This document shows, one piece after another, positions 4,411 through 9,138 of a stretch of DNA of 64,000 nt. Source of the stretch: Candidatus Moraniibacteriota bacterium. Lineage in GTDB: Bacteria; Patescibacteriota; Minisyncoccia; Moranbacterales; UBA1568. The DNA is taken from NCBI GenBank assembly GCA_016699425.1, contig CP064975.1:590098-654097 (forward strand), written 5' to 3'. A program made the position numbers and the translations under genes. The notes below the pieces were generated by a model. The model was not told the origin of the DNA, did no database searches, and was given only the letters and a program-made list of their open reading frames with translations. Position 1 is the stretch's first letter, and each line of letters starts with the position of its first letter.

Positions 4411-4446
4411 TACTAGGTGAGAGATCGAGCTCTCGACCGTTGGCAT
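4411..4446 (-). pseudogene. degenerate tRNA-Lys 3'-half remnant
   Basis: rc reads TGCCAACGGTCGAGAGCTCGATCTCTC, versus tRNA-Lys nt 36-66 AGCCAACGGTCGAGGGTTCGATCCCCC (13-nt identical core plus TCGATC). Confidence 0.5.
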
Positions 4447-4500
4447 ACAAGCCCGCCAGTTGGCAGGCCTACTGCCTGAGGCGGGAGCGATGAATAAATT
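4447..4500 (-). repeat. GC-rich nested hairpin element flanking the tRNA-Lys 3' end
   Basis: gcccgcc-agttggcaggcctactgcctgag-gcggg: outer cccgcc/ggcggg stem with inner ggcag/ctgcc stem. Confidence 0.4.
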
Positions 4501-4576
4501 TGGTGGGTGCGGGGGGGATCGAACCCTCGACCGTTGGCTTAAAAGGCCACTGCTCTACCGACTGAGCTACGCACCC
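4501..4576 (-). tRNA. tRNA-Lys (anticodon UUU), CCA encoded
   Basis: rc is GGGTGCGTAGCTCAGTCGGTAGAGCAGTGGCCTTTTAAGCCAACGGTCGAGGGTTCGATCCCCCCCGCACCCACCA. 7-bp acceptor stem GGGTGCG/CGCACCC, D-arm GCTC-AGTCGGTA-GAGC, anticodon loop CTTTTAA, T-loop TTCGATC. Confidence 0.85.
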
Positions 4577-4812
4577 ATGTTTAGAACATTTTTTAAGAAC
4601 TTTCTCCCAGCTGCCGATTTTAGATACTTTTCTCTTTTTCTCGCTGATAGTCTATCTGACAGCTCTTCGGAGTATACTACACGCAGTCCACTCATGAAAC
4701 GCGTGGTTTTAGTACCGCCTGCTGTATGTTCCGCAAGGCGCCTTGAAAGGTCATTTGTCATGCCTTTATAAAGCTTTCCTAGACTATCTTGGAGGACATA
4801 GACAGTATACAT
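4567..4812 (-). CDS. GIY-YIG nuclease-domain protein (YhbQ/UPF0213-like, 81 aa)
   Basis: MYTVYVLQDSLGKLYKGMTNDLSRRLAEH is the GIY-YIG signature (Y-x-Y…Y-x-G…R…E). The stop TAG lies inside the first 10 nt of tRNA-Lys (…AAC ATG GGT GCG TAG = GGGTGCGTAG). Confidence 0.7.
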   Translation of the reverse strand: MYTVYVLQDSLGKLYKGMTNDLSRRLAEHTAGGTKTTRFMSGLRVVYSEELSDRLSARKREKYLKSAAGRKFLKNVLNMGA

Positions 4813-4815
4813 ACA

Positions 4816-4900
4816 ACTTTACCGACTGAGCCCCGCCCGTACCGAACGCTAGCCCGACAGACTACTGTCATTCTGGCGGGGTACGTTCGGGTGGGTACGC
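4816..4900 (-). pseudogene. tRNA-Lys 5' remnant split by a GC-rich palindromic element
   Basis: rc reads GGGTGCGTA + 64-nt insert (CCCACCCGAACGTACC…CGTTCGGTACGGGCGGG) + GCTCAGTCGGTAAAG. This duplicates tRNA-Lys nt 1-9 and 10-21 with the insert between them. Confidence 0.55.
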
Positions 4901-4959
4901 ACCCGAACATGTTCATCCAAAACACAAGCATTGTACCAAAACCACCCCTTCGGTCAATG

Positions 4960-6408: not shown

Positions 6409-6984
6409 TCATTTGCTTTTCTCATTCTTCAGATATTCGTTCGCTTTCAAAATAAGAACGCATGTTGGGCCATGCGTGATTGCTCCAGTCATAACCATAT
6501 TCAAAACTTCTTGAAATGGCATCTTTATTAACTCTATCTGTTCCGTACCTTCTGGTAAAGCACTTCCCCCTACAACCAGTTCTCGTGCGAGAAAAAGAGC
6601 AGAGGGACAATTAACAACCGATGTGAAGGGATCAACACTGCCCAAAGGAACCCATTCAGAAGCTGTAATGCCCAGTTCTTCTTGCAGCTCGCGTTTGGCA
6701 GCAGTGAGAACATCTTCATTCTTGTCGATACCGCCACTCACCGATTCTATACTTTCCCTGTTGATTGCAAAACGAAACTCCTTGGTCAGATATACCGTTC
6801 TGTCGGAATCCATCGGCAACACAGAAACACCCGCTATCATTTCTACAATTCCGAATATGCCATCTTTCCCATCGGGGCGTATGACCTGATGTTCAGTAAC
6901 AGCGATCCACTTGTTCTTGTACTTTTCAATACTCTCTTTGATTTTCCAGGGTCCGTGAGTTCGCATATAATCAAAGTTCTTCAT
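6409..6984 (-). CDS. NUDIX hydrolase (ADP-ribose pyrophosphatase-like)
   Basis: Nudix box GGIDKNEDVLTAAKRELQEELGI (Gx5Ex7REUxEExGU). Confidence 0.85.
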   Translation of the reverse strand: MKNFDYMRTHGPWKIKESIEKYKNKWIAVTEHQVIRPDGKDGIFGIVEMIAGVSVLPMDSDRTVYLTKEFRFAINRESIESVSGGIDKNEDVLTAAKRELQEELGITASEWVPLGSVDPFTSVVNCPSALFLARELVVGGSALPEGTEQIELIKMPFQEVLNMVMTGAITHGPTCVLILKANEYLKNEKSK

Positions 6985-6999
6985 TTTTTTGTGGTCGCT

Positions 7000-7063
7000 G
7001 GTGGATTCCCCGCCTGCCGGACGGGCAGGGAACCAGGGACCCTTGCAATGTGAATGCTGTGCT
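7000..7063 (-). pseudogene. degenerate tRNA-Val-like 3' half with a GC hairpin inserted in the T-loop
   Basis: rc reads GAGCACAGCATTCACATTGCAAGGGTCCCTGGTTCC[ctgcccgtccggcaggcgggg]AATCCACCAGCGACCAC. The first 20 nt are identical to nt 22-41 of the complete tRNA-Val at 7123-7196. Confidence 0.5.
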
Positions 7064-7099
7064 CCCCGCCCGTACCGAACGCGGTACGTTCGGGCGGGT
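7064..7099. repeat. GC-rich palindromic element (second copy of the one at 4830-4900)
   Basis: ccccgcccgtaccgaacgc-ggtacgttcgggcggg. The 19-nt left arm is identical to the copy at 4831-4849; cccgcccg/cgggcggg form an 8-bp stem with an inner taccg/cggta stem. Confidence 0.6.
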
Positions 7100-7122
7100 A
7101 ACCTTTATCCCGTCACCTTTTG

Positions 7123-7196
7123 TGGATGATACTGGATTCGAACCAGTGACCCCAGCAATGTGAATGCTGTGCTCTAACCAACTGAGCTAATCATCC
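7123..7196 (-). tRNA. tRNA-Val (anticodon CAC), CCA not encoded
   Basis: rc is GGATGATTAGCTCAGTTGGTTAGAGCACAGCATTCACATTGCTGGGGTCACTGGTTCGAATCCAGTATCATCCA. Acceptor GGATGAT/ATCATCC, D-arm, anticodon stem CAGCA/TGCTG with loop TTCACAT, T-arm ACTGG-TTCGAAT-CCAGT. Flanked by the 12-bp inverted repeat cccgtcaccttt (7103-7114) / aaaggtgacggg (7201-7212). Confidence 0.8.
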
Positions 7197-7212
7197 GCCG
7201 AAAGGTGACGGG

Positions 7213-7270
7213 ACAAGCCTGAGCCCCGCCTGCAAAGCCTGTGCGTAGCACTACGGGCAGGGATGCGACC
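7213..7270 (-). pseudogene. tRNA-like 5' remnant with GC-rich hairpin insert
   Basis: rc reads GGTCGCAT-[CCCTGCCCGTAGTGCTACGCACAGGCTTTGCAGGCGGG]-GCTCAGGCTTGT. The 5' acceptor strand GGTCGCA is complementary to GCGACC at the end of the 3' remnant at 7000-7063. Confidence 0.35.
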
Positions 7271-7286
7271 ATATACAGCTCTCAAT

Positions 7287-7547
7287 TTAGCGTGTTTCCT
7301 CAGGCTTGTCTATCGCCTTTTCTCCCCAAAACCACTTGTAGATCCCATAGACCCAAATCGCCGAATAAACGATAGAGTTCAGGAAGATCCCCCACTGGTC
7401 ATGCGTGTAAGCCGTGAAAAACCAGAACGGCTGAGCGAGCAGACCCAGCACAAACCCCCATTTATTCTTCCGGGCGACGAGAAACATCGCCGAGAATCCG
7501 AAGATGGGTATACCAACCTGAGCGATCACATCGGCATTGATACTCAT
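7287..7547 (-). CDS. small Trp-rich membrane protein (PnuC-like fragment?)
   Basis: 86 aa, two or three predicted TM helices, W-rich (…KNKWGFVLGLLAQPFWFFTAYTHDQWGIFLN…). Confidence 0.4.
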   Translation of the reverse strand: MSINADVIAQVGIPIFGFSAMFLVARKNKWGFVLGLLAQPFWFFTAYTHDQWGIFLNSIVYSAIWVYGIYKWFWGEKAIDKPEETR

Positions 7548-7605: not shown

Positions 7606-9138
7606 TTATCTCGTTCCTGCCTGGGACAACGGGTCATCTGTCGTCTTTCCCGATTGCTTTGGTGCGGGACGAGTCGGTGGAAAGATGACCGTCTCGCGTA
7701 TGCCCTTGTCCATGAGGACGGCAAAGAGCCGTTCACTCATGCCAAACCCAAACGCCGGTGGCATCCCGTACTCGAGCGCCTGGAGGAAATCCTCATCGAG
7801 CATCTGTGCCTCGGCATCCCCGGCCTCACGGAGCTTCATCTGCGCTTCGAAACGCGCGCGCTGGTCAATCGGGTCGTTCAATTCAGCGAAGCCGTTGCCG
7901 AGCTCACTGCGTCCCGCGATCGGCTGCATCCGGAGCGTTCTCTTTGAATTTTTCGGATCGAGTTTAGCCAAGGGCGACACCTCGACCGGATGACCGACCA
8001 GGATGCAGGGCTGGATCAATTTCTGTCGTACGGTTTTCTTGTAAATCGTATCGATGAGCCGACCCTTACCGGCTGCTGATTCATACTTGATGCCGAGCTC
8101 GTCTGCCTTGGCACGCAGCATCTCGACCGTCACTTCGCTCGAAAGATCAATACCGGTCTCAGTCTTGAAGGCTTCGAAGTAATCAATCCGCGGGAACGGC
8201 TTCGACCAATCGAGTGTCTCGCCCTCATGCGTTGTCGTGAGACTATCGCCCGCCACCGCCCGGACGATTTCACGGTACAGTTCCTCTACCATGGCACAGC
8301 CCGCCTCAAAATCAGTATAGGCGCTGTAGAACTCGATATGATCGAATTCCTGAAGATGTTCACGATCAATGCCCTCGTTCCGGAATACGCGACCGATTTC
8401 AAACACGCGTTCATAGCCGCCGACGAGGAGCCGCTTCAGTGGCAGTTCAAGCGAGATGCGCAGATAGAAATCCTGATCCAGTGCATGGTGATGCGTGACA
8501 AATGGCTCTGCCTCAGCCCCGCCTGGTACATGCTCCAAAACCGGTGTCTGTACCTCGAGAAAACCACGGGTCGCGAGAAAGGTGCGGACTGTCTGCCAAA
8601 ATGTGTTCTTCTTCACAAACAACTCTCGCGTCTCAGGATTCATCACCAGGTCAAGATAGCGTTGCCGGAGCAGCGCCTCTTCATCTTTCAGTCCGTAGAA
8701 CTCCGTCGGAAGCGGGAGGAGCGACTTCGACAACATCTGCCAACTTTCGACCCGGACGCTCTTCTCATTCTGTTTCGTCAGAAACACCGTACCAGTCATC
8801 GAAATGAAGTCACCCAGCTCGACCGTTTCTTTAAAAAGAGCAAACTTACTATTGTCTTGTGGTGCGTCAACTGGAGCAAGTAATTCCTGTGAAAAGAATC
8901 CTTGAATTTTTCCACTCCCATCTTCGATGTGACAGAACGCGATCTTGCCCATAGTCCGAAGCGAGCGCACCCGACCGACCACCGAGACCTGCGTGGCCGT
9001 GCCGTTCAGCTCATCAAAACGATCAAGGACCGCCTGGTTCGTATCTGTCCGACGGGCTTTTTCCGGATACGCCGAACCGAGCGCGGTGACGATCTTCGCG
9101 AGTTTTTCATGTTTTGCGGTGAGAATATCTTCGCGCAT
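7606..9138 (-). CDS. lysS: lysyl-tRNA synthetase, class II
   Basis: 510 aa with N-terminal OB anticodon-binding domain; class II motifs (FRNEGIDREHLQEFDHIEFY, motif 3 GFGMSERLFAVL). Confidence 0.9.
   Translation of the reverse strand: MREDILTAKHEKLAKIVTALGSAYPEKARRTDTNQAVLDRFDELNGTATQVSVVGRVRSLRTMGKIAFCHIEDGSGKIQGFFSQELLAPVDAPQDNSKFALFKETVELGDFISMTGTVFLTKQNEKSVRVESWQMLSKSLLPLPTEFYGLKDEEALLRQRYLDLVMNPETRELFVKKNTFWQTVRTFLATRGFLEVQTPVLEHVPGGAEAEPFVTHHHALDQDFYLRISLELPLKRLLVGGYERVFEIGRVFRNEGIDREHLQEFDHIEFYSAYTDFEAGCAMVEELYREIVRAVAGDSLTTTHEGETLDWSKPFPRIDYFEAFKTETGIDLSSEVTVEMLRAKADELGIKYESAAGKGRLIDTIYKKTVRQKLIQPCILVGHPVEVSPLAKLDPKNSKRTLRMQPIAGRSELGNGFAELNDPIDQRARFEAQMKLREAGDAEAQMLDEDFLQALEYGMPPAFGFGMSERLFAVLMDKGIRETVIFPPTRPAPKQSGKTTDDPLSQAGTR

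Follow-up and report, generated by a model that had tools for sequence, protein, structure and literature searches.

A tRNA-Val(CAC) gene nested within the halves of an older copy in Candidatus Moraniibacteriota: probable relic of a tRNA-targeted replacement cassette

Organization of the tRNA-Val locus

The window, i.e., the whole 64-kb stretch of DNA that was analysed, is a chromosomal segment of Candidatus Moraniibacteriota, a bacterium of the candidate phyla radiation (CPR), in which both ARAGORN and Rfam place two tRNA genes, tRNA-Lys(UUU) at 4504-4576 and tRNA-Val(CAC) at 7123-7196, both on the minus strand. The second gene, which has genes for ribosome recycling factor, SerRS, LysRS, PBP2 and a NUDIX protein in its vicinity, is the centre of the locus described here: the complete tRNA-Val (the inner copy) is carried by a short cassette lying between the two halves of a second tRNA-Val sequence (the outer copy), and these halves are interrupted by three GC-rich hairpins, h1, h2 and h3. 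In minus-strand order, the features of the locus are the following.

7299-7310, minus strand: upstream arm GACAAGCCTGAG of a perfect 12-bp inverted repeat, with its partner CTCAGGCTTGTC at the cassette junction (7212-7223).
7263-7270, minus strand: 5' acceptor strand and U8 of the outer, putatively ancestral tRNA-Val, GGTCGCAT, a 7/8 match to the intact gene of the relative L015 (GGTCGCTT) and identical to the remnant of the relative L018.
7225-7261, unstranded: hairpin h1, 37 nt, reading CCTGCCCG...GCAGGCGGG in the tRNA sense and interrupting the outer tRNA at position 8/9; absent from the relatives L001 and L002.
7219-7224, minus strand: D-stem 5' strand and start of the D-loop of the outer tRNA-Val, GCTCAG, aligning to L015 and L001.
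7197-7218, minus strand: 5' end of the cassette, with the junction GCTTGT, the 5' arm of a clamp (7201-7213, TCCCGTCACCTTT) and the spacer CGGC; the GCTTGY-CCCGT junction is conserved in L001 and the clamp pairs perfectly over 13 bp.
7123-7196, minus strand: inner tRNA-Val(CAC), acceptor stem GGATGAT/ATCATCC, found by ARAGORN (7122/7123-7196) and Rfam (70.8 bits), with 21/21 stem pairs.
7104-7122, minus strand: 3' end of the cassette, with CA, the 3' arm of the clamp (7108-7120, AAAGGTGACGGGA) and TAAA; the L001 arm differs in sequence and pairs perfectly.
7099-7103, minus strand: 3' part of the outer D-loop, GGTTA, aligning to the L015 D-loop AGCTGGTTA.
7065-7098, unstranded: hairpin h2, 34 nt, CCCGCCCGAACGTACCGCGTTCGGTACGGGCGGG, at position 21/22 of the outer tRNA; absent from L001.
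7030-7064, minus strand: outer tRNA-Val between h2 and h3, comprising the D-stem 3' strand, the anticodon arm, the variable region and everything up to the TTC of the T-loop, GAGCACAGCATTCACATTGCAAGGGTCCCTGGTTC, aligned with the inner copy and L001.
7009-7029, unstranded: hairpin h3, 21 nt, CCTGCCCGTCCGGCAGGCGGG, in the T-loop between C56 and G57; absent from L001.
6992-7008, minus strand: what is left of the outer T-loop, with the 3' strands of T stem and acceptor stem and the discriminator, GAATCCACCAGCGACCA, showing no difference from L015 and L001.

An earlier note, made from the sequence of the window, had already recognized the complete tRNA-Val, enclosed by an inverted repeat and flanked by tRNA-like remnants; its observation is confirmed and its interpretation, that of an intact cassette sitting inside a disrupted older copy, is supported by the comparative data presented below. 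The palindromic element that it placed at 7064-7099 is indeed present one base further in at either end, the 21-nt hairpin that it assigned to the T-loop of the 3' remnant corresponds to h3, and the GC hairpin interrupting the 5' remnant measures 37 nt instead of 38. The bracketing repeat exists but is of 13 rather than 12 bp (7108-7120 / 7201-7213), and its left arm, given as 7103-7114 and in reality at 7109-7120, had been placed 6 nt too low. Likewise, the identity between the anticodon arms of remnant and intact gene holds for 20 nt (GAGCACAGCATTCACATTGC), the final two stem bases being different (TGCAA vs TGCTG). The complementarity noted between the 5' acceptor strand of the outer copy, GGTCGCA, and the end of the 3' remnant was found as a 6/7 pairing with AGCGACC at 6993-6999.

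The 3' remnant is 91% identical to the intact tRNA-Val over 35 nt, the trailer being conserved too, and the inner and outer copies have an identical core of 27-31 nt. No CCA is encoded by the inner gene. The outer tRNA-Val ends at 6992, seven bases before the start codon of the NUDIX gene (6982-6984).

Empty and occupied sites in related genomes

The closest relatives having the gene order LysRS - tRNA-Val - NUDIX - SerRS are L001 and L002, two independent assemblies in which NUDIX is ~80% identical. Both have the same nesting as the window and none of the three GC hairpins; in the alignment between L001 and the window, h1, h2 and h3 represent three clean window-specific insertions, the corresponding L001 flanks being contiguous, and the outer 3' half of L001 is a perfect half-tRNA (anticodon stem CAGCA/TGCTG, T stem GGTGG/CCACC).

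Scanning species-representative genomes with the outer 3' end led to the identification of L015 (Ca. Moraniibacteriota), in which an uninterrupted outer-type tRNA-Val (GGTCGCTTAGCTCAGCTGGTTAGAGTACAGCATTCACATTGCTGGGGTCGGTGGTTCGAATCCACCAGCGACCA), called by ARAGORN and endowed with 21/21 stem pairs, is located directly after LysRS and before SerRS. This allele is the empty site, from which it follows that the cassette entered the D-loop, between GCTCAG and GGTTAGAG. Matches to the outer 3' end in Bacteroidota, Kapabacteria, Chlorobiota and HR21 were discarded, being ordinary 76-nt tRNA-Val genes with only T-arm and acceptor sequence in common.

Further states of the LysRS-linked site are represented by L018, where a 5' remnant (GGTCGCATAGTTCAGTT and a mini-hairpin) precedes an inner-type tRNA, by L035, whose inner-type tRNA has the same sequence as the one in the window and is followed by a 3' remnant, and by L024, which has a clean inner-type tRNA alone. 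The LysRS of L015 is the most distant from that of the window (68% identity) and those of the carriers of the inner-type tRNA are 73-81% identical to it, which fits an ancestral outer type, followed by invasion and then by differential decay. Nesting and direction of events are well supported, and it is shown that a complete tRNA-Val of foreign type was inserted into the resident gene at its D-loop.

In other CPR contigs tRNA fragments were seen beside intact tRNAs (L020, 781-799; L026, ~8535-8572; L034, ~1265-1330), with no nuclease gene in the sequence examined; these fragments may be older relics of the same process.

Functional state of the inner and outer copies

Comparison between the window and L001 reveals no difference in the inner tRNA (0/74) and seven in the outer halves (7/70; Fisher p=0.005), the inner tRNA being identical at 74/74 positions in the window, L001 and L035. 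Stem pairing follows the same trend: in the window all 21 pairs of the inner copy are kept, compared to 16/21 in the outer one, in which two pairs of the anticodon stem, two of the T stem and one of the acceptor stem are broken, the segment 7030-7064 carrying the stem-breaking substitutions TGCAA and CCTGG. In L001 the outer copy retains 18/21 stem pairs and has a decayed 5' acceptor strand, with 4/7 acceptor pairs left. With respect to L015, the outer copy of the window shows 6/70 differences and the inner copy 12/74; the displaced native segment is therefore the nearer to the uninterrupted gene and the inserted copy the more divergent, the native copy being the one that decays.

When hairpins and cassette are excised in silico, ARAGORN calls the outer copy of the window as tRNA-Val(CAC) as it stands at a relaxed threshold, and at the default threshold once A9 and two lost D-loop bases are restored; this bears out the proposal that the remnants are halves of an older tRNA copy. 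In L042 and L041 the same excision gives back a tRNA-Val and a tRNA-Asp, respectively. As the locus stands, Infernal with Rfam at E<=10 finds no tRNA other than the inner one between 6900 and 7400, so that neither an intron-containing nor an otherwise single coherent tRNA is predicted across the region; other permissive Rfam matches in the same interval (snoR9, Plastid-ycf2 and similar) were set aside as spurious overlaps with the hairpins or the tRNA antisense strand. Decay, broken stems and lack of a tRNA call on the outer halves show that these are pseudogene fragments and that the inner tRNA is the working gene. Constraint on the outer copy is relaxed, the inner copy having taken over the function.

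The hairpin family

The termini of h1 and h3 are alike (CCTGCCCG...GCAGGCGGG), with ends of 10-11 nt in common, and the 17-nt 3' end of h2 is identical to that of a 64-nt hairpin splitting the 5' remnant at the tRNA-Lys locus of the window. These elements define a family of near-palindromic hairpins, CCCGCCCGA...TCGGGCGGG and C/T variants thereof, of which other members occur in L018, L037, L038, L039, L042, L044 and L049. In the window the hairpin pattern has four matches, all at the tRNA-Val and tRNA-Lys loci, compared to 0.02 expected, and within the 294 kb examined true members of the family are found only inside tRNA remnants, none being present in an intact tRNA or elsewhere.

Perfect inverted repeats of at least 12 bp with a loop of at most 100 nt are likewise concentrated at the Val locus, which contains the only two of the window (~0.45 loci expected per window). 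A chance origin of the inverted repeats and hairpins of the Val locus can be excluded. One of these two repeats is that formed by 7299-7310 and 7212-7223, the 75-nt interval between its arms containing the 5' remnant and h1 as well as a weak promoter-like site; this repeat is absent from L001.

The boundaries of the hairpins are clean and correspond to recurrent tRNA positions, namely 8/9 or 9/10, 13/14, 21/22 and 56/57. The position of h2 (21/22) is also occupied by hairpins in L041, L042 and L049, and the T-loop position of h3 (56/57) in the 3' remnants of L041 and L048. No target-site duplication was detected at the hairpins, the flanks rejoining to plain tRNA sequence (e.g., GGTTC|GAATCC and GGTTA|GAGC). 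With respect to the sense strand of the tRNA, hairpins of either orientation occur, a circumstance that argues for a DNA-level element rather than for a conserved RNA structure; an RNA-level role, which a U-G wobble pair in the stems of h1 and h3 on the tRNA sense strand had suggested, was abandoned because the family inserts both ways. Shared termini at several sites and presence/absence between close relatives are what a small palindromic mobile element would produce, and h1-h3 fit this description. The comparison with L001 and L002 demonstrates, moreover, that the hairpins were gained later than the nesting, in the lineage of the window.

The tRNA-Lys locus and other loci with a GIY-YIG nuclease

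The tRNA-Lys of the window belongs to a sister locus that includes a GIY-YIG nuclease open reading frame (ORF).

4416-4904, minus strand: the whole tRNA-Lys locus, 2.5 kb from the Val locus, in the order remnant-hairpin-ORF-tRNA-hairpin-remnant.
4896-4904, minus strand: 5' remnant of the outer tRNA-Lys, GGGTGCGTA.
4832-4895: 64-nt hairpin.
4820-4831, minus strand: GCTCAGTCGGTA, between the 64-nt hairpin and the ORF.
4567-4812, minus strand: GIY-YIG ORF, 81 aa (Pfam E=8e-12).
4504-4576, minus strand: inner tRNA-Lys.
4452-4485: second hairpin.
4416-4451, minus strand: 3' remnant of the outer tRNA-Lys.

The likeness between the two loci, as well as the lack of a nuclease ORF at the Val locus, had been pointed out in the earlier note, and the comparative data agree with both. 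The same association is constant: in all ten independent loci examined that encode this nuclease or a relative of it, a tRNA remnant split by hairpins and the nuclease ORF are accompanied by an intact tRNA having the identity of the remnant, which is Lys in the window, L018, L037 and L044, Asp in L038 and L041, Thr in L039, Val(CAC) in L042 and L049 and Glu in L048. In L041 and L042 both outer tRNA halves are kept, so that these loci are fully nested like the Val locus. ORF and tRNA are interlocked, the stop codon of the former being the TAG provided by tRNA nucleotides U8-A9-G10 (4567-4576 in the window; also in L018, L037, L038, L039 and L044) and its last two or three residues being encoded by the tRNA acceptor stem and differing with the tRNA.

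The nuclease consists of a single catalytic domain, UPF0213/Slx1-like (PDB 1zg2 and 1ywl, E ~4e-4), whose catalytic residues Tyr, Tyr-x-Gly, Arg, His and Glu are invariant in an alignment of 30 sequences. No named NCBIfam family matches it, and the wider family comprises 3,210 cluster representatives at E<=1e-10. Neither relatives of the nuclease nor the inner-type tRNA were found in the viral contigs searched, and a phage origin of either is not supported.

Two of these loci display variant arrangements. In L044 (897-1506; also in L045 and L047) a single tRNA-Lys is preceded by two GIY-YIG ORFs in tandem, and a hairpin-split 5' remnant lies ahead of each ORF, which suggests repeated invasion of one gene. 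L048 (1069-1700) is a mirror image, in which the intact tRNA-Glu and a terminator are followed by the GIY-YIG ORF and then by a hairpin-bearing 3' remnant; the latter has hairpins in both T-loop and acceptor strand, and trailer and terminator are duplicated.

The clamp around the inner tRNA

Leader and trailer of the inner tRNA-Val form a perfect 13-bp stem both in the window (CCCGTCACCTTT/AAAGGTGACGGG) and in L001 (CCCGTTACAACTG/CAGTTGTAACGGG), with ~5 paired positions being different between the two. Leader-trailer stems of at least 13 bp occur at 3 of the 52 tRNAs of the loci examined, i.e., at the Val loci of the window and L001 and at the inner tRNA-Asp of L041, all of them nested copies, and none of 1040 shuffled controls exceeds 10 bp. 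The fold predicted for the whole Val locus (-147 kcal/mol, z=-6.7) contains the clamp around the cloverleaf and, in addition, h1-h3. The clamp may let the inner tRNA fold locally despite flanks that are nearly identical half-tRNAs. That the clamp could consist of the arms of a hairpin-family element having the tRNA in its loop was considered and is not supported, only the CCCG...CGGG ends being in common.

In L041 (~1440-1960) inner and outer tRNA-Asp both carry the same family of leader-trailer clamp (GACAGACC.../...GGTCTGTC); here the clamp belongs to the tRNA locus itself and was copied together with the tRNA.

Interpretation and alternative explanations

The most satisfactory reading of the Val locus is that of a mobile cassette which targets tRNA genes and supplies a substitute tRNA itself, represented here by a member lacking the ORF or by a relic. 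To the full statement, that an outer-type tRNA-Val was split by a replacement-tRNA cassette belonging to a recurrent, nuclease-bearing and tRNA-targeted class of CPR bacteria, we give a probability of about 0.65. The resident outer-type tRNA-Val(CAC), GGTCGCT...AGCGACCA, was split in its D-loop by a cassette of ~115 bp carrying a different, complete inner-type tRNA-Val(CAC), GGATGAT...ATCATCCA, clamped by the 13-bp leader-trailer stem; function passed to the inner copy, the outer halves became pseudogene fragments that are gaining stem-breaking mutations, and three GC-rich palindromic elements later entered the dead halves at tRNA positions 8/9, 21/22 and 56/57. In the complete form of the class, as at the tRNA-Lys locus, a gene for an ~80-aa single-domain GIY-YIG nuclease separates the hairpin-split remnant from the intact tRNA. 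The nuclease presumably cuts a naive cognate tRNA gene and repair would then copy the cassette, conserved tRNA sequence serving as homology arms, with the host surviving because the cassette supplies a working tRNA. The hairpins may colonise, or be kept in, the dead copy, where they would interrupt both the direct repeats and any nuclease target and thereby stabilise the arrangement; alternatively, they may persist only where they are harmless. The Val cassette would either have lost its nuclease ORF or have been mobilised in trans.

Several points weigh against this interpretation, of which the first is the most serious. Between the 5' remnant and the inner tRNA, which are 22 nt apart, there is no ORF, nor is any nuclease remnant detectable at the Val locus, and because of this the link with GIY-YIG homing is one of analogy and of a shared hairpin family. 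The nuclease has no obvious DNA-binding domain, and the insertion points vary with the tRNA, from D-loop to anticodon loop, with no single target site evident. The GIY-YIG loci (n=10), with relatives of the nuclease that are 57-86% identical, were picked for their long contigs and not at random, and the evolutionary order of the site states is read from pairwise identities taken as a proxy for a tree. The junctions differ among L018, L035 and the pair formed by the window and L001, which suggests several independent events or a complex rearrangement. Finally, perfect clamp arms could arise without selection, by templated correction of a quasi-palindrome, the independent clamp sequences being only two.

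A more far-reaching proposal, which we put forward tentatively and consider open to serious doubt, is that the ~80-aa GIY-YIG nuclease, the GC-rich hairpin and the duplicated tRNA segment together constitute an undescribed class of homing elements that are specific to tRNA genes of CPR bacteria and carry a replacement tRNA with them, of which the hairpins would be an active component and the clamp-flanked whole-tRNA cassettes non-autonomous derivatives. In this case the hairpin might be a structure recognised or inserted by the nuclease, or else a block to re-cleavage and to repeat-mediated deletion.

It is unlikely, on balance, that a dedicated nuclease played no part, i.e., that ordinary horizontal transfer of DNA with an inner-type tRNA-Val, and its homeologous recombination with the resident gene through short tRNA identity, left the partial duplicates behind and that the hairpins are unrelated palindromic transposable elements surviving only in dead tRNA. 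The Val locus does lack an ORF, the identical core of inner and outer copies could mediate recombination, remnants lie beside intact tRNAs with no nearby nuclease in L020, L026, L034 and L035, and the occurrence of the hairpins in both orientations is what would be expected of transposable elements. What recombination leaves unexplained is that the same hairpins and architecture accompany a GIY-YIG ORF in 10/10 loci comprising five tRNA identities, as well as the strict nested order with a clamp and the fact that both tRNAs of the window are affected.

Far less probable is continued function of the outer tRNA, with hairpins and clamped inner tRNA as intervening sequences removed from the transcript in the manner of archaeal multi-intron or split tRNAs, or with the two halves as a two-piece tRNA held by the clamp. 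Clean inserts at defined positions, the ARAGORN-callable tRNA obtained upon their excision, the perfect outer 3' half of L001 and the capacity of a clamp to bring the outer halves together would all suit such a gene. The five broken pairs of the window and the 4/7 acceptor pairs of L001 are nevertheless difficult to reconcile with function, the rate of change is higher in the outer copy than in the inner, some or all of the outer copy has disappeared from L018, L024 and L035, hairpins inserted in either orientation leave no constant RNA form, and neither ARAGORN nor Rfam (also at E<=10) gives a single tRNA across the region. Bacteria are not known to possess the archaeal splicing endonuclease.

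Remnants produced as att duplications by an integrase-mediated element, or by tandem duplication followed by decay, hardly come into consideration. Integration typically takes place at tRNA genes and leaves behind a displaced piece of the tRNA 3' end; however, no integrase or recombinase is encoded by the neighbouring genes, a 5' remnant is present besides the 3' one and the insert is of only ~115 bp. As for tandem duplication, it cannot produce the order 5' half, complete tRNA, 3' half, and inner and outer copies differ in their acceptor and T stems (12/74 positions). An assembly or binning artefact, conceivable for a metagenome-assembled genome, is practically dismissed by the recurrence of the nesting in three independent assemblies (window, L001 and L002) and of the hairpin architecture in more than ten independent metagenomes from different projects.

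Neighbouring genes

The NUDIX gene (6409-6984) is found between tRNA-Val and SerRS only in the window and in L001/L002; in L015 and L024 SerRS is directly 3' of tRNA-Val, and two small ORFs occupy the place in L018, so that the site downstream of tRNA-Val is variable among relatives. With regard to the suggestion that the NUDIX promoter might lie within the remnant, a promoter and terminator scan yielded only a weak promoter-like site at 7312-7284, upstream of the entire Val locus, and none inside the remnant, so that this suggestion is unsupported. On the minus strand, the interval separating LysRS from the tRNA-Val locus also holds an 86-aa ORF (7287-7547) whose similarity is confined to the N-terminal third of the PnuC/NMN transporter (Pfam positions 9-70 of 175). 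L001, in which the outer tRNA follows the stop codon of LysRS at a distance of ~12 nt, lacks this ORF, which probably represents part of a gene or a small inserted segment. The contig CAYUIR010000010.1 (L011 / L001) is labelled as an "uncultured Bdellovibrionales" metagenome-assembled genome, and its genes and synteny are those of Moraniibacteriota, the label being probably a binning or labelling error.

Significance and comparison with known systems

The arrangement described here shows a route into an essential, single-copy structural RNA gene that does not entail the death of the host, the element bringing a working replacement, and the conservation of tRNA sequences may offer such elements ready homology arms in any genome. 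It also accounts for the tRNA fragments and GC hairpins beside CPR tRNA genes, which are otherwise open to misannotation, suggests that tRNA genes of reduced CPR genomes are exchanged horizontally more often than assumed, and gives a large family of tiny GIY-YIG proteins a function that can be tested.

Multi-intron, split and permuted tRNAs of archaea have structured inserts at non-canonical positions, which are excised from functional genes at bulge-helix-bulge motifs. As in CPR bacteria, the inserts are short, affect also the D-arm and the T-loop and are similar across different tRNAs; unlike them, the CPR hairpins occur only in decaying copies, in either orientation and in a bacterial host.

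In phage T4, SegB is a free-standing GIY-YIG homing endonuclease encoded in a tRNA cluster, whose cleavage results in preferential inheritance of the neighbouring tRNA region (PMC2330249). A GIY-YIG gene among tRNA genes is common to both systems, but SegB is a longer, multi-domain phage enzyme, is not encoded inside a tRNA gene and is accompanied by neither nested or partial duplicates nor hairpins. Within the same group of organisms, the rRNA genes of CPR bacteria are known to carry endonuclease-bearing insertions, some non-intron inserts encoding GIY-YIG proteins, with tRNA genes and hairpins not being mentioned (PMC11270868). Although structural RNA genes are invaded in either case, the rRNA genes stay functional, the inserts being removed from the transcript, whereas here the invaded tRNA dies and is replaced.

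As to the hairpins, the palindromic GC clusters of yeast and other mitochondria form sequence families, show presence/absence among close relatives and diversify by merging and shuffling (PMC4478555). Short GC-rich palindromes grouped in families and differing in their presence are found in CPR bacteria too, but these were observed exclusively in disrupted tRNA sequence, show no detectable target duplication and accompany the nuclease/tRNA cassette as it moves.

The mORFs (mobile endonuclease ORFs) of fungal mitochondria (Allomyces atp6; Glomus atp6, atp9, cox2 and nad3) insert together with a foreign replacement of the C-terminus of their target, the native C-terminus being left downstream (PMC3630166). 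The parallel is extensive: a free-standing endonuclease gene enters an essential gene with a foreign replacement, the displaced native part decays downstream, divergence is greater in the inserted fragment than in the native one, which agrees with close relatives, and ORF-less or empty alleles exist in related genomes (PMC3630166). On the other hand, the CPR targets are bacterial tRNA genes instead of mitochondrial protein genes and a whole tRNA may be nested; furthermore, the CPR nuclease is of ~80 aa with the catalytic domain only, palindromic hairpins are present in every case and the Val locus has no ORF.

The fungal mORFs are the closest documented system, and the hairpins find their nearest counterpart in the mitochondrial GC clusters. 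In the open-access papers and preprints searched, nested tRNA replacement accompanied by hairpins was not found to be described for bacteria. That a homing-type ORF carries a replacement for what it destroys is a known principle; the new aspects are the tRNA-gene target, the host group, the minimal nuclease, the nesting of a whole tRNA with a clamp and the obligatory hairpins. The Val locus is a decaying, nuclease-less relic and a clear, comparatively dated example of an apparently undescribed and widespread process of tRNA invasion and replacement in CPR bacteria.

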